From the NCBI GenBank assembly GCA_964474935.1, contig CAYYUT010000065.1, positions 1 through 10,708 of the forward strand: 10,708 bases of DNA, written 5' to 3'. This document shows, piece after piece, positions 1-10,708 of the stretch. The position numbers and the translations under genes are program-made. This DNA comes from an uncultured Spirochaetales bacterium (GTDB lineage Bacteria; Myxococcota_A; UBA9160; JAFDDA01). The notes beneath the pieces were generated by a model. The model saw only the letters and a list, made by a program, of their open reading frames with translations, searched no databases and had not been told where the DNA came from. Position 1 is the first letter of the stretch; the number at the start of each line of letters is the position of its first letter.

Positions 1-1490
1 AGACCGAGGTCCACACCCCGGCGGAAGCCACCGAGAACTTCGATCTGATCACCAACGAGAAGGGCGCATCGGTGGTGCGGATGCTGGAGCGCTATCTCGG
101 CGCGAACCGCTTCCGCAAGGGGGTGCGCCGCTACATCCGGAAGCATCGGCTCGGGAATACCGTGGCGGCCGACCTGTGGAACGCGCTCTCGGAGGCCTCG
201 GGCGAAGAGGTCGAGCCGGTGGTGCGGGCCTGGATCGAACAGAGCGGTTTCCCGGTGGTGTCCCTGACCCGCAAACGGGGCCGCGGCGGACCGCGCATCC
301 GGGTACGCCAGGAGCGCTTCCACGCCCGCAAGCCGCGGCGCCGTGTGCGCCAGCGCCCGTGGCCCGTCCCGTTGGTGCTTCGGATCCAGGGAGCGCGAGG
401 CCGGGCGACGCGGATCGAGCGCAAGCTCGTCACGGGGGCGCGAGACGAGGTGGTTCTCGCGCGCGCTGCGCCGGGCTTCGTCCATGGGAACGCGGACGCT
501 GGCGGCTTCTACCGCACCCTGCACGAGCCCGCCGAGCTCTCGGCCCTGGCGGCCGGGCTCGATGCGCTGACACCGCTCGAACGGATGGCGCTCATCGGCG
601 ACCAGTTCGCGCTGCTCCGCGCGGGCCGTGCTCCGCTCGCCGCCTTCCTCGAGCTGGCGGCCGCCTACGGAGGCCAGACCGACCCCGACGTGCTCGTGGC
701 GGTCCGCGGTCCGCTCGCCACCCTGTCCGAACGGCTCGGCCCGGCGGTGGGCGACGAGGTCGAGGCGGTGCTCCGCAGCTGGATGGTGCGCCAGTTCGGC
801 GACCAGATCCTCGCGCTCGGCTGGGAACCCGAGCGGGGCGAGGACGAGGCCACGCGCGTGCGACGGAGCGTGGTGGTGGAGATCCTCGGATCGCTGGCCG
901 AGTGGGAGGCGGTGGTGGACTCGGCGCGCGAGCGCTGCGAGGCCTATCTCGACGATCGCCGCTCGCTCGAGCCGAATCTGGCCGACCCGGTGGTCGCGAT
1001 CGCGGCGCGAAACGGCGACGGCAAGCTCTACCGGCGGTTCCAGGCGGCGGCCCGGGAGGCCGCGACACCCCAGGAGCGACGCCGCTTCCTGATGGCGCTC
1101 GGGGCCTTCCGCGACCGGAAGCTCGTAGCGACGACCCTCGAGGCGTCCCTCGGAAACGAGATCCCCACCCAGGACGTGGCCATCCTGATCGCTCGCATGC
1201 TCGCGAACCGCAGCGCGCGCGACGCCACCTGGCGCTTCGTGAAGCGGCACTGGACGGCGCTGCGCGAGCGGATGCCGCCCATGCTCGTCACCCGCGTCAT
1301 CGATGCGCTCCCGGAGCTCGGGGGCAGGGCGAACCGCCGGGACGTCGCGGCCTTCTTCAAACGCCACCCGGTGCCGACCGGCGCACGCGCCCTCGTCCAG
1401 GCCCTCGAACGCTTCGACATCGACGAGGCCTTCCAGCGCAAGGCGGGACCAGAGCTCCGGCGTTGGGCGCGCCTCGAGACCGGAAGCTAG
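1..1490 (+). CDS. pepN: M1-family zinc aminopeptidase (aminopeptidase N-like), C-terminal ~496 aa; 5' end lies outside the window
   Basis: The frame is open from nt 3. Its translation (TEVHTPAEATENFDLITNEKGASVVRMLERYLGANRFRKG...) matches the conserved 'FDxI(S/T)YxKGAxVLRML' segment that follows the catalytic domain of M1 peptidases. An ERAP1_C-like, Leu/Ala-rich helical C-terminal domain follows, up to the stop TAG at 1488-1490. The HExxH-(18)-E motif would lie upstream of the window. The pepN symbol is a family-level guess. Confidence 0.88.
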   Translation, partial: TEVHTPAEATENFDLITNEKGASVVRMLERYLGANRFRKGVRRYIRKHRLGNTVAADLWNALSEASGEEVEPVVRAWIEQSGFPVVSLTRKRGRGGPRIRVRQERFHARKPRRRVRQRPWPVPLVLRIQGARGRATRIERKLVTGARDEVVLARAAPGFVHGNADAGGFYRTLHEPAELSALAAGLDALTPLERMALIGDQFALLRAGRAPLAAFLELAAAYGGQTDPDVLVAVRGPLATLSERLGPAVGDEVEAVLRSWMVRQFGDQILALGWEPERGEDEATRVRRSVVVEILGSLAEWEAVVDSARERCEAYLDDRRSLEPNLADPVVAIAARNGDGKLYRRFQAAAREAATPQERRRFLMALGAFRDRKLVATTLEASLGNEIPTQDVAILIARMLANRSARDATWRFVKRHWTALRERMPPMLVTRVIDALPELGGRANRRDVAAFFKRHPVPTGARALVQALERFDIDEAFQRKAGPELRRWARLETGS

Positions 1491-2614
1491 TCGGTCCCCG
1501 CACCGCCCGGGCCGCCGTCCGGAGGAGGCGGCGGCGGCGGAGGCCCCTGGAACAGGGGCGCGAGCGCGGGCACCGCGCCGGCCGGCTGCCAGCCCGTGAG
1601 CCCCGCGGTCCAGACGAGGGTCTGCGGACCCACGCGCCCTCCGGCGATCGCCTCGGCCAGGGCCGCCTGCTCGACCGCGAAGCTCTGACCGTTCTCGGCG
1701 ACGTACCACGAGGGCAGCTGGGGCAGCGGCGGCGGACCCGCCGGGGCCGCGGTCGGCGCGCCCCCGCCCGGCACCGTCTGGGCGTAGGCCATCCCCATCC
1801 CGAGCCCCACGCCGGCGCCGGCCAGTCCGCCGGCCGGGTTGGCGGCGGCCACCGGGGTCGCGGCTCCGATCTGGAACTGCTGGTAGCGGGCCAGGTCGCC
1901 CACCACGTTCATGCCGGTCCGGGCGTCGAGCGCCTTCTCGACCTCGGGCGGAAGCGAGATGTTCACGATGTAGAGCTGGGGCAGGTCGAGCCCGAACTCG
2001 TCGTCGATCTTGGACACCACCCGCTTGCGCAGCTCTTCGGACAGGGCGCGGTAGTTCTCGGCCAGGTCGAGGGCCGCCACGTCGGCGCTCGCCACGAGCT
2101 CGGCGAAGGCGTGGTTGATGATCGACCGGATCAGCTCGCTGATCTCGTCGGTCTCGAACGACGAGTCGGCGCCGACCAGCTCGTTCAGCAGCGCGCGGGG
2201 ATCGATCGCCCGCAGCGTGTAGGTCCCGAACGCCCGCAGCCGGATCGGTCCGAAGTCGACGTCGCGCATCATCACCGGGTTGGGCGTACCCCACTTCAGA
2301 TCGGCGATCTGGCGCGTGCTGGTGAAGTAGACCTCGGCCTTGAAGGGGCTGTCGAAGCCGTACTTCCAGCCGGCCAGCGTGCTCAGCACCGGGAGGTTCT
2401 TCGTCTCGAGTCGGTACTGACCGGGGCCGAAGACGTCGGCCACCCGGCCCTCGCGCACGAAGATCGCCTGCTGACCCGGCCGCACGATGAGCTGGGCACC
2501 GTATTTGATCTGGTTGTGGTACCGCGGGAAACGCCAGACGAGGGTGTGGCGGCTGTCGTCGATCCATTCGACGACATCGATCAGCTCACCGCGCAGTTTG
2601 TCCATGAAGCCCAT
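1487..2614 (-). CDS. SPFH/Band-7 family protein (Band_7_1/COG4260-like) with C-terminal GYF_2 (DUF4339-like) domain and Pro8 tail; 375 aa
   Basis: The ORF track extends to 2746, but the real start is the ATG at 2614 (MGFMDKLRGELIDVVEWIDDSRHTLVWRFPRYHNQIKYGAQLIVRPGQ...). It is preceded by GGAGG (+ strand 'cctcc' at ~2623-2627, 8-nt spacer). The N-terminal 250 aa match the Band_7_1 consensus (VWRFP...IKYGA.LIVRE.Q.A.F...G...D.FGPG.Y.L.T.N.P.L..L.GWKYGF.SPFKAEVYF). The C-terminus SWYVAENGQSFAVEQAALAEAIAGGRVGPQTLVWTAGLTGWQPAGAVPAL matches the GYF_2 consensus (WY...GQ..GP.....L.....G.I...TLVW..GM..W.PA..VP.L). It is followed by PPPPPPPP. Confidence 0.9.
   Translation of the reverse strand: MGFMDKLRGELIDVVEWIDDSRHTLVWRFPRYHNQIKYGAQLIVRPGQQAIFVREGRVADVFGPGQYRLETKNLPVLSTLAGWKYGFDSPFKAEVYFTSTRQIADLKWGTPNPVMMRDVDFGPIRLRAFGTYTLRAIDPRALLNELVGADSSFETDEISELIRSIINHAFAELVASADVAALDLAENYRALSEELRKRVVSKIDDEFGLDLPQLYIVNISLPPEVEKALDARTGMNVVGDLARYQQFQIGAATPVAAANPAGGLAGAGVGLGMGMAYAQTVPGGGAPTAAPAGPPPLPQLPSWYVAENGQSFAVEQAALAEAIAGGRVGPQTLVWTAGLTGWQPAGAVPALAPLFQGPPPPPPPPDGGPGGAGTD
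1520..1545. repeat. Short GGN/GGC trinucleotide tract (ggaggaggcggcggcggcggaggc) encoding the Pro8 run at the C-terminus of the SPFH-GYF protein
   Basis: Read directly from the sequence. (GGC)4 is flanked by GGA/GGC repeats; the reverse complement encodes PPPPPPPP. Confidence 0.8.
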
Positions 2615-2622
2615 GGGTCGAT

Positions 2623-2627
2623 CCTCC
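2623..2627 (-). promoter_or_regulatory. Shine-Dalgarno (GGAGG) for the SPFH gene, inside the 16-nt gap after the Zn-ribbon gene stop
   Basis: The reverse complement of 2615-2630 is accGGAGGatcgaccc, followed by ATG (2614). This supports the internal ATG as the true start rather than the upstream in-frame ATG at 2746, which overlaps the preceding gene. Confidence 0.7.
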
Positions 2628-2630
2628 GGT

Positions 2631-3482
2631 TCAGTCGAGTAGGGAGATGATGAGATCGAGCGCGCTGCGGCCGAACCCCCCAGCCCCTCGATTGGATTCG
2701 AGCCTGCCTGCGTGGGCGAGCCGGTGGAACTCGTGGGCCACGGCACGGGTCTTGCGTTCCTCGTCCCGCGTCGGTGTGGCGTCGCCTCCGTGGTCCACGA
2801 TGAAGCCCGCGATCTCTTCGAGCTCGTCGGCGTCGAGCCAGGTGCCGTGATCGTGACAGCGATCGATGATCACTCCCGAGCTGCGCCGGAAGTTCCGGCG
2901 ATGCATGAATGCCTCGCAGACGGGGCACTTTCGGTAGTGCACACCGCGGGCGACCGGGTTCCCGCCCACGCGCCGCGGCGCCAGCCGCTCCCGCTCCCCG
3001 GGCGTTCGCTTGCGCAACGAATCGACCGCCCGGTTCACCAGCGTCTCGAAGTGATCGCCGGGTACCCAGAGACCGTTGCAGGAGGGGCATTCGTTGGTTG
3101 GGAGCTCGCCGATCGAGCGGACCGGCATCAGACCGCCACAGCAGGGACACGGCAGCTCACGGCCCTCGACGAGCGGTTGGGGATCGAAGGCAACGCCGCA
3201 TGCCGTGCAGAAGCGCGAGTGCTCGGCGTTTCGCGCGAAGCACTCGGGGCAGATCGTCGATAGCGCCTCCTCGTCGCGAACCAGGCTCCCACCGCAGTAC
3301 GCACAGACCTCGGTGTCCCCCGTGACGCTGGCTCCGCACGACCCGCAGCGATGGATGGGCTTGTCGACGGGCGTCTGGGGTCGGTTCGCGATGGACGCCC
3401 CGCAGCTGCAGGCGACGAACTCCTGCACGACATGGGTCACGTCGTACTGCCGATGGCAGTCGGGGCAGGCGACGAGGCGCAC
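2631..3482 (-). CDS. Multi-zinc-ribbon protein (283 aa): three double-CxxC ribbons followed by two zf-TFIIB-like (PF13453-like) zinc-ribbon modules and an acidic/helical tail
   Basis: Cys pairs are CPDC..CSC, CGSC..CAYC and CPEC..CTAC. Two further modules match the zf-TFIIB pattern: CPCCGGLMPV...ECPSCNGLWV, and CPVCEAFMHRRNFRRSSGVIIDRCHDHGTWLDADELEEI, the latter with His in place of one Cys. The GTG start at 3482 directly abuts the pilT stop (TAG, 3483-3485). A GAGGGG SD-like sequence lies 7-12 nt upstream in the mRNA. There is no ATG until residue ~118, so the GTG start is likely. Confidence 0.8.
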   Translation of the reverse strand: MRLVACPDCHRQYDVTHVVQEFVACSCGASIANRPQTPVDKPIHRCGSCGASVTGDTEVCAYCGGSLVRDEEALSTICPECFARNAEHSRFCTACGVAFDPQPLVEGRELPCPCCGGLMPVRSIGELPTNECPSCNGLWVPGDHFETLVNRAVDSLRKRTPGERERLAPRRVGGNPVARGVHYRKCPVCEAFMHRRNFRRSSGVIIDRCHDHGTWLDADELEEIAGFIVDHGGDATPTRDEERKTRAVAHEFHRLAHAGRLESNRGAGGFGRSALDLIISLLD

Positions 3483-4547
3483 CTAGGCCCCTCGTACGAG
3501 CGGCTCGAAGCGCCCCTTGTCGTGCGCCTTCGACATCGCCTGCTGCGGATCGACCCGCCCTTCCTTGGCCAGCGCGAACAGGGCATCGTCCATGGCCTGC
3601 ATTCCAACGTTCCGGCCCGACTGGATCAGCGAAGTCAGCATCGGGGTGATCCCCTCGCGCACGAGGTTGGGCAGGCCGGAGGTCCGCAGCAGGATCTCGT
3701 GGACGGCGACCCGTCCCGCGCCGTCGGCCGTCGGCAGCAGCAGCTGCGACACCACGGCGGCCAACGAATCGGCCAGCGACATCCGCACCTGGGCCTGCTG
3801 CTCGGCCGGGAACGCGTCGATCACCCGGTCGATGGTCTTGGCCGCGCTGTTGGTGTGGAGGGTCCCGAATACGAGAGAACCCATCTCGGCCGCCGTGATG
3901 GCGAGCGAGATGGTCTCCGGGTCGCGCATCTCGCCCACCAGGATGATGTTCGCGTCCTGGCGCACGACGGCCCGGAGCGCACCGGCGAACCCGTCGGTGT
4001 GGGCGCCCACCTCGCGATGCGAGAAGACCGAGCCGCGGCTCTCGTGGACGAACTCGACGGGGTCCTCGATCGTGACGATGTGCTTGGCATGATCGCGGTT
4101 GACGCGGTCGATGATGGCCGCGAGGGTCGTGCTCTTGCCCGAACCCGTGGGCCCGGTGACGAGGACGAGCCCCTTCTCGAGATTCGCGAGCTCGGCGACC
4201 GCATCCGGCAGGCCCAGGTCCTCGGCGGGAATGATCTGTTCCGGGATGATCCGGAAGACGGCGCCGGCCCCGTTCTCCTGCATGAAGAAGTTGGCGCGAA
4301 AGCGTGCGATCCCCGGAAGCCCGTACGCGAAGTCGAGATCTCCCCCGGTCGCGAAACGGTCCCACTGATCGGGCTCGGCGATCTCTGCGAGCAGCGAACG
4401 GACCGCCTCGTCGCTGAGGAGCGCCTCTCCGTCGATCGGTTCGAGGGCACCCTTGGCCCGGATCCGCGGCTCGCGTCCGGCGGCCAGATGGAGGTCGCTG
4501 CCCTTCCTCTCCTTGAGCATCGTGAGCAAGCGATCGATCTCGGCCAT
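3483..4547 (-). CDS. pilT: Type IV pilus retraction ATPase PilT (354 aa)
   Basis: MAEIDRLLTMLKERKGSDLHLAAG... gives the PilT N-domain 'SDLHL' motif. Walker A is LVTGPTGSGKSTT and Walker B is VTIEDPVEF. The Asp box is ILVGEMRD and the His box is TLHT. The C-terminal GLPNLVREG is a diverged AIRNLIRE motif. The length is typical of PilT. ATG at 4547 is preceded by GGGAGG (10-nt spacer), which overlaps the stop of the upstream gene. Confidence 0.95.
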   Translation of the reverse strand: MAEIDRLLTMLKERKGSDLHLAAGREPRIRAKGALEPIDGEALLSDEAVRSLLAEIAEPDQWDRFATGGDLDFAYGLPGIARFRANFFMQENGAGAVFRIIPEQIIPAEDLGLPDAVAELANLEKGLVLVTGPTGSGKSTTLAAIIDRVNRDHAKHIVTIEDPVEFVHESRGSVFSHREVGAHTDGFAGALRAVVRQDANIILVGEMRDPETISLAITAAEMGSLVFGTLHTNSAAKTIDRVIDAFPAEQQAQVRMSLADSLAAVVSQLLLPTADGAGRVAVHEILLRTSGLPNLVREGITPMLTSLIQSGRNVGMQAMDDALFALAKEGRVDPQQAMSKAHDKGRFEPLVRGA

Positions 4548-4550
4548 CGG

Positions 4551-6083
4551 TCAGCGACCTCCCGCGAAACGCTTCGAATCGTTGGCGTGCAGCCGGGCTT
4601 CATCGGCGCTGATCGTCCCGGACCTCACCAGCTCGGTGAGCGAGTCGTCGAGCAGGCACATGCCCTGAGCCGCGCCGGTCTGGAGGATCGAGTGGATCTG
4701 GACCGTCTTGTTCTCGCGGATCAGGTTCCCGATGGCCTTGTTCACCACCATCACCTCGAGCGCGGGAACCCGGCCCGTTCCGTCCGCCTTCGACACCAGA
4801 CGTTGCGAGACCACCCCCCGGAGCGACTCGGACACCATGCTCCGGATCTGGCTCTGCTGGTTCGGCGGAAAGACGCCCACGAGCCGGTTGATCGTGCCGA
4901 TCGCGGAGTCGGTGTGGAGGGTCGCCAGGACGAAGTGGCCGGTCTCGGCGGCCGTGAGGGCCAGTGAGACCGTCTCGAGATCGCGGAGCTCGCCGATCCC
5001 GATCACGTCGGGATCCTCGCGGAGCGCCGCCCGAAGGGCGCGTGCGAACGATTCGGTGTGGCCCCCCACCTGGCGTTGGTTCACCAGGCAACGCTTCGAT
5101 GCGTGGAGGAACTCGATCGGGTCTTCGATCGTGATGATGTGATCGCTGCGGTCCTCGTTCACGATGTCGAGCAGGGCCGCCATGGTCGACGACTTGCCGC
5201 AGCCGGCCGGTCCGGTCACCAGCACCATTCCCTGATGGAAGCCCGTGAAACGCGCGAGCGTGCTGGGAAGACCGAGCTCCTCGAGGCCCGGGGGAGCGAT
5301 CGGGATGGCCCGGAACACCCCGTCGACGCCGTGCTGCTGTCGGTACACGTTGCACCGGAACCGGGCCACGCCGTCCAGGGTGTAGGCGAAGTCGATCTGG
5401 CCCTGCGTCTCGAGCTGCTCCCACTGCGCCGTCGAGAGCGCGTCCCGGAACATCGACTCACAGGCAGCGGCTTCGAGGGGAGCGTCTCCCGACGTCTCGA
5501 GCTTTCCATGACGACGCATCCGAAGTGCCGAACCGGCATGGATGTGGTGATGGCTGGCGCCGGCCTCGACGGCCTTGCGCAGCAGCCCGGCGAGCCGCTC
5601 CGAACGCTCGGCCGGGCGGCTCGCCGTAGACGCCGCGAGACCGGCGGGCGGGCTCGCTTCCGGGACGGCCCTCACGGACGCGTCCGGACTCCGTGGCGCG
5701 GCCGCGGGCGGCGACGACCCGGCAGCCACGGGGGATGGCGCGCGCGTCGCGCCCGCTCCGCCCGGCGGATCGGGCGGCGGGTTCGCGGGGCGCGCCGACT
5801 CGGGCCTCGCAGTCGGGTCGGGGGCCCGGGAAGCGCCCGCGGCGGCCGACCCCGAGGCGGACTCCGTGGCGCGGGACGCCCGCGACTTCACCAGCATGTC
5901 GCGCTGGATCTGGAGCAGCCGATCGAGCTGCTTCTGGGTGACCCAGCCGTGCTCCATCATGAGCTCGCCGAGCCGGTGCTCGGGCGGCTGATCCGCCAGC
6001 ACCTGCTCGAGCTGGTCCTTGCGGATGAGCTTGTAGTGGACGGCGAGTCGTCCGAGAAGCGGTGCGCGCGACAGGTCGGCCAT
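4551..6083 (-). CDS. PilT-family ATPase paralog with N-terminal MshEN/T2SSE_N-like domain (predicted c-di-GMP binding) and ~95-aa disordered Pro/Ala/Ser-rich linker (510 aa)
   Basis: The ORF track runs to 6851, but the in-frame ATG at 6083 (MADLSRAPLLGRLAVHYKLIRKDQLEQVLADQPPEHRLGELMMEHGWVTQKQLDRLLQIQ) has an AGGAAG SD 6 nt upstream. Sequence upstream of 6083 translates to Arg/Pro-rich junk. The N-terminus has two tandem 24-aa motifs matching the MshEN consensus RLGxxLLxxGxIxxxxLxxALxxQ. Then comes a low-complexity linker (ASGSAAAGASRAPDPTARPESARPANPPPDPPGG...). A full PilT core follows: GASHHHIHAG corresponds to 'SDLHL'. Walker A is LVTGPAGCGKSST, Walker B is ITIEDPIEF, the Asp box is IGIGELRD and the His box is TLHT. 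AIGNLIRENKTVQI is a near-canonical AIRNLIRE motif. Confidence 0.9.
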   Translation of the reverse strand: MADLSRAPLLGRLAVHYKLIRKDQLEQVLADQPPEHRLGELMMEHGWVTQKQLDRLLQIQRDMLVKSRASRATESASGSAAAGASRAPDPTARPESARPANPPPDPPGGAGATRAPSPVAAGSSPPAAAPRSPDASVRAVPEASPPAGLAASTASRPAERSERLAGLLRKAVEAGASHHHIHAGSALRMRRHGKLETSGDAPLEAAACESMFRDALSTAQWEQLETQGQIDFAYTLDGVARFRCNVYRQQHGVDGVFRAIPIAPPGLEELGLPSTLARFTGFHQGMVLVTGPAGCGKSSTMAALLDIVNEDRSDHIITIEDPIEFLHASKRCLVNQRQVGGHTESFARALRAALREDPDVIGIGELRDLETVSLALTAAETGHFVLATLHTDSAIGTINRLVGVFPPNQQSQIRSMVSESLRGVVSQRLVSKADGTGRVPALEVMVVNKAIGNLIRENKTVQIHSILQTGAAQGMCLLDDSLTELVRSGTISADEARLHANDSKRFAGGR

Positions 6084-6463
6084 GCCGCTTCCTATCGGAC
6101 TCCGCGCAGTCGGCGTTGAGCGCCACGACGCGGAACGCATGCCGTCGCGCGCGGCCCGACGCGATCCGGCCGGGATCGCGGGGCACCCGGGCCGGGCGGG
6201 GGCATCGGACGCATCGCGAGACCACTTCCCGAGGCGGCAAGCGAGACGCGATCCGTCGGCAGGCGACGGACGGAGCGGAGCGAACCCGCACATGGGGTGG
6301 GGCTCGGCCTGTCGCGGGATCGGATACCCTCGTCGTATGCGCCGGATCGTGACGGCCAGCTTCGGAAGCGACATCGTCCGCATCCCTCCGGACCCGCCGA
6401 ACCGGTTCGAGCCGCTGCACGTGGAGCTCGATCCCGCGCTCGAGCCGTTCCGGGAAGCGAACC
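6084..6463. promoter_or_regulatory. Divergent intergenic region (~380 bp) between the PilT-cluster first gene (-) and the ABC-class ATPase gene (+); presumed to hold both promoters
   Basis: There is no credible ORF here; the only 131-aa ORF is Arg/Pro-rich and overlaps both gene starts. The region contains an 8-bp-arm palindrome CGCGATCC-ggccg-GGATCGCG at ~6160-6180 and a second inverted repeat CCGTCG-gcagg-CGACGG at ~6252-6268. No sigma70-like -35/-10 pair is recognisable by eye, which is expected for a high-GC genome. Confidence 0.5.
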
Positions 6464-8251
6464 ATGCGGAGCGTTGAGGCGCTCTCGCAGGCCCTCCGCC
6501 GCCTCGACGGACGCAGCTACAAGGGCTACCGCGAGCTCGAGGGCGGCTGGGCGGGACGCGACTTCGAGCTCTTCCTCGACCACGCCCAGGGTGATCCCTT
6601 CGCCGCGCCCTCGAGGCTCCGCGTCCGGATTCCGATGCGCCGCGCCGATCTCCCGCGCGACCTGTTCGACCGTCCCGTCCGGCGTCTGGCCCTCGCCGAC
6701 TTCCTGGCGCGTCGCACCGCCCGGGCGATCGACGCCGGTCGCGGTCGGGGACGGGGCTCGGGACGCAGCGGACGCATCCGCATCGACAGCGGCGGAGCCG
6801 CGGTGCTGGCGCGCAGCGCCGTGCGCCTCGAGGACGACTTCGTCGAGGCACGGCTCGAGGCGGGGCTCCCGGCCGCCGGTCGTCGGATTCTGGGCGGCGA
6901 GGCCGACGCCCTGCTCACCGAGGCCCTCCCGGAGATCGCGCGACGCGGCCTCGAGGCGAGTGCGCTGCCCGAGACCGAAGCGCGCGAGTTCGTCGAGTGC
7001 GTCGAGAACCAGGAGTTCCTGCGCGCGCACCTCGGAGAGCTCGGGCTCGTGGCCTTCGTCGCGGATGGCTCCCGCCTGCCGCGTCTGTCGGGCGTCACCG
7101 AGCGCCCGCTCGCATGGGACCGGACCGTTCCCTTCGAATCGCCCGACTCACTCCGCGTCTCGGTCGAGCTTCCCCACCCGGTGCGCATCCGGGAACGCGA
7201 GCCGAGCCGGGAGGTCCGCGGCATGGGCGTCCGGCGAGGCATCACCCTGGTGGTGGGGGGCGGCTATCACGGCAAGTCGACCCTGCTGCGCGCCCTCGAG
7301 CGGGGCGTACACCCCCACGTACCGGGAGACGGGCGCGAGTACGTCGTGAGCGATCCCGACCTCGTGAAGGTCCGGGCCGAGGACGGACGCCGCATCGAAC
7401 GGGTCGACATCAGCGCCTTCATCGGTCGGCTGCCGCAGGGACGCGACACCCGCGTCTTCTCGAGCAACGACGCCAGCGGCAGCACGAGCCAGGCCGCCAG
7501 CATCGTCGAGGCGCTCGAAGCCGGGGCCCGCGTGCTGCTGCTCGACGAGGACACCTCGGCCACGAACTTCATGATCCGCGATGCCCGGATGCAGGCCCTG
7601 GTACCGGACGGCGACGAGCCCATCACCCCCTTCCTGGATCGCATCGAAGCGCTGCGCGATCGGCTCGGCGTCTCGACGGTGCTCGTGATGGGCGGTTCGG
7701 GCGACTACTTCGACGTGGCCGATCACGTGATCCAGATGCGCGGCTACCGGGCGATCGACGTCACGGCGAGAGCCCGGAGCATCGCGAGCGAACATCCCAC
7801 GCGGCGCCGGCGCGAGTCATCGGGCGAGCTCACCCCACCCGCGCCCAGGGCACCGCTCGCCGCGAGCTTCGATCCGGAGCGTGCACGCGGGCGGATCCGG
7901 ATCGAGGCGCGGTCGCGACACACGATCGGGTTCGGAGACGAGCGCATCGAGCTCGGAGCCCTCGATCAGCTGGTCGACCGGAGCCAGACCCGGGCCATCG
8001 GACGAGCCCTCCATCTCCTCGGCCGGCGCTGGGTGGACGGCACCCGGTCGCTCGGAGTACTCCTCGACGCGCTCGAAGCCGAGCTCGATGCCCGCGGGCT
8101 CGACGTGCTCGCGTCACCCATGGGTCGCCAGGCCCCGGACACGGATGAGAACGCGCATCCCGGAGATCTCGCCCGTCCGAGGCGCCACGAGATCGCGGCA
8201 GCGATCAACCGCCTGCGATCCCTGCGCGTGCACTCGGACCCGTCCGAGTGA
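6464..8251 (+). CDS. Uncharacterised 'ABC-class ATPase' family protein (PF09818/COG3044-like), 595 aa
   Basis: The N-terminus (LRRLDGRSYKGYRELEGGWAGRDFELFLDHAQGDPFAAPSRLRVRIP) matches the conserved start of the predicted ABC-class ATPase family. Walker A is VVGGGYHGKSTLL, Walker B is ARVLLLDEDTSATNF, and a signature-like SNDASGS sits between them. The only in-frame start after the upstream stop (6350-6352) is ATG 6464. A weak SD (GGGAAG) is present. Confidence 0.85.
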   Translation: MRSVEALSQALRRLDGRSYKGYRELEGGWAGRDFELFLDHAQGDPFAAPSRLRVRIPMRRADLPRDLFDRPVRRLALADFLARRTARAIDAGRGRGRGSGRSGRIRIDSGGAAVLARSAVRLEDDFVEARLEAGLPAAGRRILGGEADALLTEALPEIARRGLEASALPETEAREFVECVENQEFLRAHLGELGLVAFVADGSRLPRLSGVTERPLAWDRTVPFESPDSLRVSVELPHPVRIREREPSREVRGMGVRRGITLVVGGGYHGKSTLLRALERGVHPHVPGDGREYVVSDPDLVKVRAEDGRRIERVDISAFIGRLPQGRDTRVFSSNDASGSTSQAASIVEALEAGARVLLLDEDTSATNFMIRDARMQALVPDGDEPITPFLDRIEALRDRLGVSTVLVMGGSGDYFDVADHVIQMRGYRAIDVTARARSIASEHPTRRRRESSGELTPPAPRAPLAASFDPERARGRIRIEARSRHTIGFGDERIELGALDQLVDRSQTRAIGRALHLLGRRWVDGTRSLGVLLDALEAELDARGLDVLASPMGRQAPDTDENAHPGDLARPRRHEIAAAINRLRSLRVHSDPSE

Positions 8252-8293
8252 GGGGTCGGGATGGAGGACGACCCGCTCGCACAGGACACGGGC

Positions 8294-9835
8294 TCAAGGC
8301 TCGCGGGCCCGTTCGATCAACGCGCGCCGCAGCCGGTCCGACTCGGCCTGTGCCGCGCGCCCGGCGGCCGACTCGGGCCCGAACAGGCGCGCGGCCGAAT
8401 CGAGCATGAAGACCGCCTCGGCGTAGCGTTCTCCCCGGATCAGCAGGATGGCCACCAACCGCGCGACGTCCCCGAGATGCGAGTCGAGCCGGGTGATCTC
8501 GCGGGCGCGGTCGGCGGCCACCACCCGGGAGGTGCGCGCGGCCTCCATGGCCTCTTCGAGACCCGACTTGCGGTAGAAGAGATTGACGCCGAGCGCGCCG
8601 AGATAGGCCTCGGTCATGGTCTCCTCGTCGACCTTGGCGAACACGTTCTCCTCGAAGCCACCGGGACCAAAGCCGCGGTCCTTGAGCATCCGCAGGATCC
8701 TCTGGTTCATCGGGTCGATCTGGGTCGCCTCGCCGTCCGGGTTCATCAGCGACTCGACGTCGTCGAGGACGTGGACCCCTCCGTAGATGTGGACCAGCTC
8801 GTGGGCGAGGACGCGGCTGTCCACCTCTCCGGGCTCGAGTCGGACCACGAGCGAGCGTCCGAGGAACTCGGCCTCTCCGAGGCGTGCTGCCGTGCGACGT
8901 CTCACCGGAGGCTCGCGTTCGGTGAAGGCGGCCACGATGCCCTCGGGCGGGAGCCGCCGATCGCGCCGGAAGCGGCCATGGATGGCCTTCAGATCGTCGG
9001 CCACCCCGCGGGTCGAGAAGGCGTCGATCGAGATCGGCACGAAGACGGTCGCGAGCCACGGATCGAGGGCGCGCGACACCCGATTCCAGACGAGTCGCAT
9101 ACGGAACCGCCATTCGGGGTGGGACCGGACCGACTCGTCGGCGTAGACCGCCACCGGGACGACGCGCCGCCCGGCCCACTCGGCATCGACGCTCGCCAGG
9201 TCGGCGAAGGTCTCTTCCGCCAGATCGGCGGCCTCGTCGATCGCGAACACGGCCTGACGCAGACTCGAGCGGGCTGCCTCCTTGCGACCGATCTCGCGCA
9301 GGGCACGGCCCGCCGCGAGCTGGACGTAGGGGTCGTACGGGAAGCGCTCCATCACGGCGCCAAGCGTCTCGAGATCCGTGATCCGGAGCCCCGGCGGTGC
9401 GCGTCCGGTGGCCTCGAAGAGCCGGTGGTGGGTGCGGGGGTCGAGCGGGGCGCGCCTCACGGCGTCGCGGAGCAGCCCGCGTGCACGGTCGAGATCGCCG
9501 CGGCGCTTCGCGATCTCGGCCAGTCCGAGCAGCGGCGAGAGGGACTCGGGGTCGGATTCGGCGGCGGCGGCGAAGTGCGCCTCGGCCGCGGCGGCGTCGC
9601 CGGCTCGGAGCGCCAGCTCGCCGAGGCCTGCCTCGGCCCGGGCGGAGCGGGGATTCGCGACGAGCGCACGCGCATAGCGATCGCGCGCGGCCTCGAGATC
9701 GCCCTCGGCGACCGCTCGCGCAGCGAGCTGCAGAAGCCGTTCCTCGAGATCGTTGGTCCCGCCGGCGGACGTCGCGGCGAGCGAGAGCAAGGACGCGAAC
9801 ACGAGGGGCGCCCACGCTCGGAGCCAACGACCCAC
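8294..9835 (-). CDS. Secreted TPR-repeat protein with C-terminal metzincin-type zinc metallopeptidase motif (513 aa)
   Basis: The N-terminus MGRWLRAWAPLVFASLLSLAATSAGG is a Sec signal peptide (basic n-region, hydrophobic core, AxA-like site, no lipobox Cys). Several Ala/Leu-rich TPR-like repeats follow (DLEAARDRYARALVANP, AEAHFAAAAESDP, LDRARGLLRDAVRRAP). HELVHIYGGVH is an exact HExxHxxGxxH match, followed by a Met-turn-like SLMNP. The start is GTG, with no obvious SD. Confidence 0.85.
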   Translation of the reverse strand: MGRWLRAWAPLVFASLLSLAATSAGGTNDLEERLLQLAARAVAEGDLEAARDRYARALVANPRSARAEAGLGELALRAGDAAAAEAHFAAAAESDPESLSPLLGLAEIAKRRGDLDRARGLLRDAVRRAPLDPRTHHRLFEATGRAPPGLRITDLETLGAVMERFPYDPYVQLAAGRALREIGRKEAARSSLRQAVFAIDEAADLAEETFADLASVDAEWAGRRVVPVAVYADESVRSHPEWRFRMRLVWNRVSRALDPWLATVFVPISIDAFSTRGVADDLKAIHGRFRRDRRLPPEGIVAAFTEREPPVRRRTAARLGEAEFLGRSLVVRLEPGEVDSRVLAHELVHIYGGVHVLDDVESLMNPDGEATQIDPMNQRILRMLKDRGFGPGGFEENVFAKVDEETMTEAYLGALGVNLFYRKSGLEEAMEAARTSRVVAADRAREITRLDSHLGDVARLVAILLIRGERYAEAVFMLDSAARLFGPESAAGRAAQAESDRLRRALIERAREP

Positions 9836-9843
9836 GCGAGAGA

Positions 9844-10708
9844 TCAGCCGAGACCGGCGAATGCGGCGTCGAGGAGCGCGCCCTGCCTCTCGCGGTGCAC
9901 CCGGGCGGAACCTCCCGCCGGGCTCGCGGCCTCCCCGCGACCGGCGTAGCCGAGGCGCTGCTCCGGGCGCAGCACGTCTCCGATCCGCTCACGGACGAAG
10001 CTCCAGGCGCCCATGTTGGACGGCTCCTCCTGGACCCAGAGGACCGTCTCGGCCTGCAGATAGCGTCGCACGGCCGCGGCCACCTCGACGGAGGGCCACG
10101 GGTAGAGCTGCTCGACCCTCACGATCGCGACGTCGCCGGCGGCGTCGGGACCGACCCGCTCGACCCGCTGGTCGCGCCAGTCGAGCAGCTCGTAGTAGAC
10201 CTTCCCGGTGCAGAGCAGCACGCGCTTCACGCGGTCGGGCCGCGGGGCGGTGTGGTCGTCGTCGATCACGCGTTGGAAGCGACCGCGTACGAGCTCGTCG
10301 GGAAGCGAGGTGGCCCGCGGGTTTCGCAGCAGGCTCTTCGGAGTGAAGACCACCAGGGGGGCCCGCCATCTCCGCAGCATCTGGCGACGCAGCAGATGGA
10401 AGTACTGGGCCGGCGTGGTGGCGTTCACCACCTGCAGGTTGTCCTCGGCGCAGAGCTGCAGGAACCGCTCGAGGCGCGCGCTCGAGTGCTCGGGGCCCTG
10501 GCCTTCGTAGCCGTGCGGGAGGAGCATCACCAGACCGCTCATCCGCTGCCACTTCACGTGCGCCGACGCGATGAACTGGTCGATGATCACCTGGGCGCCG
10601 TTCGCGAAGTCGCCGAACTGGGCCTCCCACATCACGAGGGCCCGGGGCTCGGCCATCGCGTAGCCGTACTCGTAGCCGAGCACGCCGCACTCCGAGAGCG
10701 GGCTGTCC
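9844..10708 (-). CDS. sucA: 2-oxoglutarate dehydrogenase E1 component, C-terminal ~288 aa; the gene starts beyond the window end
   Basis: The frame is open to the window edge. The translation ...DSPLSECGVLGYEYGYAMAEPRALVMWEAQFGDFANGAQVIIDQFIASAHVKWQRMSGLVMLLPHGYEGQGPEHSSARLERFLQLCAEDNLQVVNATTPAQYFHLLRRQ... is the highly conserved C-terminal region of SucA/OdhA E1 (compare E. coli SPLSEEAVLAFEYGYA...WEAQFGDFANGAQV...LLPHGYEGQGPEHSSARLER). The 'M' at 10683 in the ORF track is an internal GTG. Confidence 0.92.
   Translation of the reverse strand, partial: DSPLSECGVLGYEYGYAMAEPRALVMWEAQFGDFANGAQVIIDQFIASAHVKWQRMSGLVMLLPHGYEGQGPEHSSARLERFLQLCAEDNLQVVNATTPAQYFHLLRRQMLRRWRAPLVVFTPKSLLRNPRATSLPDELVRGRFQRVIDDDHTAPRPDRVKRVLLCTGKVYYELLDWRDQRVERVGPDAAGDVAIVRVEQLYPWPSVEVAAAVRRYLQAETVLWVQEEPSNMGAWSFVRERIGDVLRPEQRLGYAGRGEAASPAGGSARVHRERQGALLDAAFAGLG

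Follow-up and report, generated by a model that had tools for sequence, protein, structure and literature searches.

We analysed a 10,708-nucleotide window of DNA from an uncultured Spirochaetales bacterium (GTDB lineage Myxococcota_A; UBA9160; JAFDDA01; assembly GCA_964474935.1, contig CAYYUT010000065.1, positions 1 to 10,708 of the forward strand), centred on a minus-strand gene at 4551-6083, here called long PilT. PilT-family hexameric ATPases power type IV pilus retraction. On balance, long PilT is best read as a PilT-family ATPase with a predicted cyclic di-GMP (c-di-GMP)-binding MshEN_N module on a predicted-disordered tether. The initial annotation of the window had proposed second-messenger control of a retraction-type motor through tandem N-terminal MshEN-type motifs, a reading that holds within what sequence and predicted structure can show.

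An MshEN_N-like domain joined to a PilT-type core

Long PilT encodes 510 amino acids (aa) plus a stop codon, is translated from an ATG at 6083 without internal stop, and is present in the protein collection as the exact representative P0001. Its N-terminus reads MADLSRAP LLGRLAVHYKLIRKDQLEQVLADQ PPEH RLGELMMEHGWVTQKQLDRLLQIQ (translation of 4551-6083, minus strand). Two consecutive 24-residue MshEN-type motifs had been annotated at 5909-6062, correctly equated with residues 8-58, and were delimited here at 5904-6059 on the same strand. Motif I, LLGRLAVHYKLIRKDQLEQVLADQ, at residues 9-32 (5988-6059), was placed by the NF053729 alignment and by its register with MshE 9-32; motif II, RLGELMMEHGWVTQKQLDRLLQIQ, at residues 37-60 (5904-5975), matches the relaxed motif of Wang et al. 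2016; and the spacer PPEH of 4 residues between them, at residues 33-36 (5976-5987), was read from the translation and the family alignment.

The MshEN character of the two motifs was borne out by searches with models, single sequences and a family profile. NF053729 ('cyclic di-GMP-binding domain-containing protein, MshE-related') aligned residues 10-60 with model positions 2-53 of 53, at E = 2.6e-11 and 43.1 bits (cutoff 38) for the isolated 68-aa fragment, and at 37.9 bits, just under the 38-bit cutoff, for the whole protein; the NCBIfam NfrB model also matched residues 5-63. Using phmmer against PDB sequences, residues 9-60 aligned in register with MshE residues 9-61, an alignment to the MshE N-terminus being one of the checks proposed. 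When the full set of PDB sequences was searched with a profile built from 50 N-termini of the family (alignment A1), significant E-values were obtained for MshEN/GSPII domains only, namely those of T. thermophilus PilF (7e-12), Geobacter PilB 5ZFR (1e-10, one continuous alignment with a 7-residue spacer, as in most family members), V. cholerae MshE 5HTL (2e-9) and M. xanthus PilB (6e-6). The hidden Markov model (HMM) check proposed for the N-terminus gave a divided result on residues 1-68: NF053729 matched above its cutoff, and Pfam T2SSE_N gave no match at E <= 1, a literal miss that is uninformative because the binding site lies in the first three helices, which that model leaves out (Wang et al. 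2016). Sub-threshold Pfam matches of this fragment were limited to FumaraseC_C, DUF4388 and E1_dh. Judged by these alignments, the N-terminus of long PilT is homologous to MshEN_N. As a side observation, the DUF4388 match fell on residues 33-60 (E = 0.036), and there is a hint that part of DUF4388 may resemble an MshEN-type helix pair.

A four-helix bundle, as expected of MshEN_N, was predicted for this domain by AlphaFold2, with helices at residues 7-16, 22-30, 35-45 and 50-71 and a mean predicted local distance difference test score (pLDDT) of 76.8 for the domain alone, and with mean pLDDT of 92-98 in 10-residue blocks over residues 11-70 of the full-length model. The whole predicted domain, long fourth helix included, spans residues 1-77 (5853-6083, minus strand). 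Searched against the PDB with Foldseek, it returned MshE with bound c-di-GMP, 5HTL, as the top match (probability 0.98, query template modelling (TM) score 0.63, 2.3 Å over 53 columns), followed by PilF GSPII-A, Xanthomonas PilB-N and PilF GSPII-B. The MshEN assignment of the initial annotation therefore stands for the MshEN_N four-helix subdomain and not for a complete 145-residue MshEN: MshEN_C (T2SSE_N1) was judged absent because T2SSE_N gave no match and residues ~78-156 are of low complexity with pLDDT <50.

These residues form an Ala/Pro/Ser/Arg-rich low-complexity linker (5616-5852, minus strand), predicted to be disordered. Over residues 66-160 its composition is A 27, P 19, S 15 and R 10 of 95, pLDDT fell below 50 over residues 81-155 of the full-length AlphaFold2 model, and no Pfam match was found within it. 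The linker of relatives is variable and of low complexity, and lies between the same N-domain and PilT core.

The ATPase core, residues 157-510 (4554-5615, minus strand), is of PilT type, as first annotated. TIGR01420 (PilT/PilU family) scored 439.6 bits against a cutoff of 319.1, with residues 164-503 on model positions 2-341 of 343, and P. aeruginosa PilT 3JVU aligned end to end (2.2e-93), as did Geobacter and Aquifex PilT. Against PDB structures the core scored 302-316 bits for PilT, 209 bits (1e-60) for PilU and ~95 bits for PilB; of the three, PilT is by these scores its nearest relative. Walker A (GPAGCGKS, residues 291-298), the Asp box (EDPIEF, residues 320-325), Walker B (DPDVIGIGELRD, residues 357-368), the His box (TGHFVLATLHT, residues 381-391) and AIGNLIRE (the PilT AIRNLIRE motif, residues 450-457) were read from the protein sequence, and the catalytic motif positions are all invariant in the family alignment. 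Most of the core was predicted with pLDDT >85 in the full-length model, with a dip to ~50-65 over residues ~311-350. The His box and AIGNLIRE had both been pointed out in the initial annotation; the 'SDLHL-equivalent' listed with them, the ASDLH element in the N-terminal part of PilT, reads ASHHHIH in the window protein (residues 176-182, 5538-5558, minus strand), with four His within six residues; its Asp is conserved in at least 90% of the family alignment and is His here.

The fusion family and its tandem partner

The same N-terminus, linker and PilT core were found in 118 of the 120 best database homologs, which are 440-574 aa long and 54-74% identical to the window protein over the aligned region, and at least 152 distinct relatives with the MshEN_N-like plus PilT architecture were collected from metagenome-assembled genomes (MAGs) of Myxococcota and Thermoanaerobaculia. 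A pattern derived from a 10-sequence N-terminal alignment and scanned against one genome per GTDB species returned 50 loci, nearly all of them in MAGs and none in a named cultured isolate, and in ~42 of the 50 a complete open reading frame (ORF) fuses the N-domain to a P-loop ATPase core. These loci are labelled Myxococcota or 'Deltaproteobacteria' (26), Thermoanaerobaculia or Acidobacteriota (17), and Bdellovibrionales, Spirochaetales, Proteobacteria or Gammaproteobacteria (remaining 7). The combination is conserved in many uncultured soil and sediment bacteria. The fusion had been called unusual, which is true of the literature (the 2016 catalogue and a 2024 review) and not of nature, where such fusions are far from rare. 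Two well-known parts are joined here in a new way, and the resulting architecture is widespread among uncultured Myxococcota and Thermoanaerobaculia.

An exhaustive search of representatives with the N-terminal profile gave 11,667 matches and was unfit for sizing the PilT-fusion family, because multi-repeat MshEN_N proteins dominate its top; the best-scoring proteins (P0253-P0272) carry 4-11 tandem MshEN_N-like units at lengths of ~380 to 1970 aa. Relatives of long PilT are annotated at source as 'twitching motility protein PilT' or 'PilT/PilU family type 4a pilus ATPase', and annotated starts may hide the MshEN_N-like domain in some records. MBE2252621.1 (P0128, in the P0121 cluster), for instance, is called at 373 aa, too short for the N-domain, whereas sibling sequences from that 90% cluster have 465-482 aa. 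With such plain names or truncation of the N-domain, surveys of c-di-GMP receptors may miss these proteins.

Long PilT is followed on the same strand by a plain PilT paralog of 354 aa (3483-4547; TIGR01420, 418 bits; P. aeruginosa PilT, 3.6e-96), here called short PilT. The two genes are probably co-transcribed, since the short gene starts 3 nucleotides (nt) after the stop of the long one; no sigma-70 promoter or intrinsic terminator was found around the pair. Short PilT and the long core share 44% identity, which marks them as old paralogs. In tblastn searches a plain PilT lay directly after the long gene in 47 of 54 related loci; the other 7 are mostly cut by contig ends, and in L022 the long gene is disrupted. 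No conserved pil or c-di-GMP genes lie beside the pair, and flanks differ between the related loci compared. The long and short genes are therefore taken as a genuine module of two genes, conserved between loci, rather than as a product of misassembly. One candidate for a natural long-short fusion, P0002 (818 aa, ENA metagenome), was set aside: its junction is Arg/Ser/Gly-rich and looks out of frame, probably through a frameshift or sequencing error.

Ligand-contact residues and competing readings

In MshE, guanine 1 of c-di-GMP is sandwiched between Arg9 and Leu25/Leu29/Leu39, and guanine 2 is gripped by Arg38 together with Leu54/Leu58/Leu10; guanine O6/N7 are recognised by the main-chain amides at Gly11-Asp12 and Gly40-Asp41, the ribose-phosphate is held by Gln32 and Gln61, and Gly18 and Gly47 form helix turns (Wang et al. 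2016). Substitutions of G11 and G40 abolish binding, mutants of Arg9, Asp12 or Gln32 apparently change affinity no more than fivefold, and the loss of binding in XpsE is blamed on G11V, L29R, R38G, G40L, L54H, L58C and Q61V (Wang et al. 2016). Long PilT carries L10, G11, L25, L29, Q32, R37, L38, G39, G46, L53, L57 and Q60; both position-3 Gly (G11 and G39), both position-24 Gln and all six guanine-stacking Leu are present, and none of the XpsE-type loss-of-binding substitutions occurs.

Conservation was counted over the 152 distinct family N-termini. L9, G11 and R12 are invariant, and residue position 10 is hydrophobic throughout. L25 (146) and Q32 (140) are kept in most relatives in motif I, as are L38 (143), G39 (139), G46 (135), L53 (136), L/V/I/M at residue position 57 (138) and Q60 (142) in motif II. 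Conservation of the R/L/G/Q contact positions had been proposed as the supporting result, and it was found across these relatives, position 1 of motif I being Leu in all 152.

Both motifs had been said to fit the published consensus. Motif II does so by the relaxed expression of Wang et al., with M42, M43 and W47 where the strict consensus wants L/V/I(F), whereas motif I has two mismatches to the 2016 consensus, Leu in position 1 and Lys in position 10; motif II had been noted as the better match, and the Lys observed in place of Gly in the first motif is K18. Against the extended consensus of 2024, motif I fits save for the Lys at position 10: that consensus begins (R/K/L)LG, PilF GSPII-B binds without any Arg, and a hydrophobic residue (Leu) opening the motif has been put forward as a predictor of very high affinity (Neissner et al. 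2024, PMC11731258). The spacer has 4 residues rather than the consensus 5; family lengths are 4 (n = 16), 5 (n = 21), 6 (n = 7) and 7 (n = 108). In the alignment of Wang et al. 2016, NfrB, an experimentally proven c-di-GMP binder, shows Gln instead of Gly at position 10 of motif I and likewise a spacer of 4 residues. Spacer length is not strictly defining, because NfrB has 4 residues and Geobacter PilB 7. The window protein is among the most canonical members of its family, and its residues tip the estimate modestly towards c-di-GMP binding.

Several observations weigh against this reading. The turn position 10 of motif I is Lys in 145 of the 152 relatives and Arg in 7, and never Gly, although a turn at K18 is still predicted by AlphaFold2. 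R12, A14 and H16 are invariant and lie outside the MshEN consensus, and together with the family Lys at the motif I turn they suggest, as a matter of sequence, a specialised function. Position 21 of motif I (the L29 site) is Thr in 91 of 152 relatives, with Leu in the window protein. A subclade of Myxococcaceae-labelled MAGs keeps motif I and has a degenerate motif II (PLS..K..A.WLAQAQ), so motif conservation is not explained by c-di-GMP alone. PilF GSPII-A is near-consensus yet non-binding, for structural reasons invisible in sequence (PMC12002112). Foldseek E-values are weak, the domain being small and helical, and the domain would have to act on the ring across a tether of ~80 residues. The absence of MshEN_C also counts here, though it is not disqualifying, because isolated MshEN_N (residues 1-62) binds c-di-GMP alone.

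The degenerate motif II was seen at loci L040, L042, L044, L045, L047, L048, L051 and L052 (all of them MAGs, with the labels Myxococcaceae, Archangium or Myxococcus sp.), where motif I is almost unchanged but in motif II LG has become LS or IA, the turn G has become K in most, and L has become A or V.

The main rival, which we hold to be unlikely but by no means negligible, is that the N-terminal bundle is a degenerate MshEN_N that has lost c-di-GMP binding and serves to dock another protein, for example PilM, the partner PilT or an adaptor of PilZ type. Such behaviour is seen in PilF GSPII-A, XpsE-N and the N-domain of Xanthomonas PilB, and XpsE and PilF GSPII-A, the latter a proposed 'landing pad' (PMC12002112), are well-documented non-binding homologs; the family-specific R12, A14, H16 and K18 outside the ligand consensus, the replacement of the motif I turn Gly by Lys, the frequent Thr at position 21 and the subclade with a decayed motif II would all suit this reading. 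It is opposed by the window protein itself, from which the substitutions blamed in XpsE are all missing and in which the paired Gly and Gln and the six Leu are retained, most of them also across Acidobacteriota and Myxococcota; both deviations of the window protein are, moreover, found in proven binders.

It is much less probable still that the domain binds another nucleotide second messenger or small ligand, changes in motif I having retuned its specificity. A non-canonical motif I (L9, R12, H16, K18) beside a canonical motif II might fit an asymmetric ligand, but MshEN specificity comes from the Gly-X backbone amides that read guanine O6/N7, both Gly-X pairs are intact, and no MshEN-type domain with a different ligand was found in the literature covered.

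The view that the fusion is artefactual (motifs matched by chance, the start codon misplaced, the ORF chimeric or misassembled) is effectively refuted. Long spurious ORFs are common in a window of 71% GC, P0002 is a clear frameshift fusion, and one MAG relative is annotated at 373 aa; set against this are HMM and profile E-values of 1e-9 to 1e-12 and the recurrence of the architecture in nearly all of the best homologs and in 50 genomes. The start Met agrees with that of homologs, which begin at the same point, a Shine-Dalgarno-like AGGAAG (6089-6094, minus strand; consensus resemblance only) lies 5 nt 5' of the ATG, and GC content at third codon positions (GC3) is uniform through the N-domain (0.91), linker (0.87) and core (0.87). 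A longer ORF at 4551-6851 was rejected as a high-GC artefact, homologs beginning at the Met of 6083.

That the protein is an extension (PilB/MshE-type) ATPase mistaken for PilT, as its N-terminal GSPII-type element, the feature that distinguishes extension from retraction ATPases according to a 2024 review, could suggest, is refuted at the level of sequence: TIGR02538 (PilB) scored 137 bits against a cutoff of 676, where TIGR01420 scored 440 against 319, the PilB and GspE equivalog models reached 137-140 bits against cutoffs >630, the PilB alignment (~1e-26) covers the P-loop region only where that to PilT (~316 bits) runs end to end, AIGNLIRE is present, the CxxC pair of the PilB-type zinc site is absent from long PilT, and so is the MshEN_C/N1 subdomain.

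Possible mechanism, related systems and genomic surroundings

Were c-di-GMP bound, one molecule would lie across the bundle, as in MshE and PilF. The G11-R12 backbone amides would bond the edge of the first guanine, L25/L29/L38 would stack on it and Q32 would hold its ribose-phosphate, and G39-E40, L53/L57/L10 and Q60 would take the equivalent roles at the second guanine; L9, and possibly also the invariant R12, would take over the stacking role that Arg9 has in MshE, as a Leu does in PilF GSPII-B, a high-affinity domain. The ligand would rigidify the bundle and create a composite surface, which would alter the partner of the tethered domain, this being its own ATPase ring, short PilT or the pilus base (PilM/PilC), and the cellular c-di-GMP level would then decide engagement of the retraction-type motor. 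The effect could be either activation or inhibition. We tentatively propose that this family may be the first type IV pilus retraction-type motor to sense c-di-GMP directly, long PilT acting as the sensor subunit of a long/short pair, stacked or mixed in one ring, in which the messenger level would switch retraction itself.

Where c-di-GMP is known to control type IV pili, its target is the extension ATPase, reached through the ATPase's own MshEN/GSPII domain or through FimX/PilZ adaptors, and retraction is treated as a passive follower of extension. If binding is real, c-di-GMP could address the retraction side directly; if the wider proposal also holds, the pilus machine of Myxococcota and Thermoanaerobaculia would have a second, opposing input point for c-di-GMP, at which retraction would be switched too, unlike in MshE and PilB, where only extension is.

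MshE (5HTL) and PilB (Geobacter, Myxococcus, Chloracidobacterium) are, like long PilT, PilT/VirB11-superfamily ATPases whose extreme N-terminus has the tandem 24-residue motifs and four-helix bundle, with the same position-3 Gly, leucine triangles and position-24 Gln, MshE being the best structural match. They differ from it in that the ATPase of the long protein is PilT-type, a disordered linker of ~80 residues replaces MshEN_C/T2SSE_N1, motif I carries Leu and Lys at positions 1 and 10, and the spacer is 4. T. thermophilus PilF GSPII-B (8PDK; Neissner et al. 2024), matched with the N-domain by both profile and fold searches, binds c-di-GMP and, like motif I here, has no Arg at position 1 (Lys and Leu in GSPII-B); unlike the window protein, PilF powers extension and contains three GSPII domains, all complete, and unlike window motif I, GSPII-B keeps the turn Gly and gains extra affinity from the C-terminal subdomain. 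E. coli NfrB resembles long PilT in its non-Gly residue (Gln) at motif I position 10 and its 4-residue spacer, and differs in that its MshEN is C-terminal and its output is a membrane glycosyltransferase, activated by c-di-GMP. FimX/PilZ adaptors also tie c-di-GMP to a type IV pilus motor, as is predicted here, but are separate proteins acting on PilB, whereas here the domain is fused to a retraction-type ATPase. PilT/PilU tandems (Pseudomonas, Vibrio, Neisseria) likewise comprise two adjacent PilT-family genes, the window's two being probably paired; in contrast to those tandems, both window genes score nearer PilT than PilU, and PilT and PilU there have no sensor domain.

The catalogue of Wang et al. 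2016 lists MshEN fused to the T2SSE ATPase domain (MshE-, PilB- and XpsE-type examples), glycosyltransferase, REC and HD-GYP, and further to CheA, CheX, cyclase, kinase, AAA_31, peptidase M23 and TrxB; a PilT fusion is absent from it, and PilT is never mentioned in the main text of that paper. Full-text literature searches found no published description of an MshEN-PilT fusion. In M. xanthus, MXAN_6705 and MXAN_6706 are neighbouring PilT paralogs, highly conserved across Myxococcales (Rahman et al. 2026, PMC13584747), and deletions of PilT paralogs give varying S-motility defects (PMC13584747). The longer N-terminus of MXAN_6705 is 'predicted to be intrinsically disordered', with c-di-GMP unmentioned (PMC13584747). 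By this published description the two resemble the long-plus-short tandem; the searches for a link by orthology found none: the 50 pattern-scan loci include no cultured genome, a second homolog search and a cluster look-up returned MAG proteins only and no M. xanthus-named protein, and a string search for MXAN_6705 in the supplement of Wang et al. 2016, where table text is fragmented, found nothing. The Myxococcaceae-labelled relatives have a degenerate motif II. The 'disordered' N-terminal extension of the Myxococcus PilT paralog may hide a folded domain of MshEN_N kind.

No c-di-GMP riboswitch or other Rfam element was found in the window (Rfam search). Downstream of short PilT and nearly abutting it on the same strand, 2631-3482 encodes a double zinc-ribbon/TFIIB-type zinc-finger protein, followed at 1487-2620 (minus strand) by an SPFH/Band-7 protein with a C-terminal GYF_2 domain; both genes are missing from the otherwise syntenic locus L003 and look like a neighbourhood insertion. 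Upstream of long PilT, on the plus strand at 6464-8251, lies an ABC_ATPase-family gene (PF09818/ABC_N/MRB1590_C), and beyond the PilT pair, on the plus strand at 72-1490, an M1 aminopeptidase gene. The same two genes flank the pair in GCA_029261875.1 (L003), at 6139-7890 and 10541-13216; these common flanks suggest a related lineage, and no functional link is evident. At another related locus (L004, 4933-6912), a protein combining Response_reg, PatA_N (DUF4388) and DnaJ domains is encoded two genes upstream of the PilT pair.

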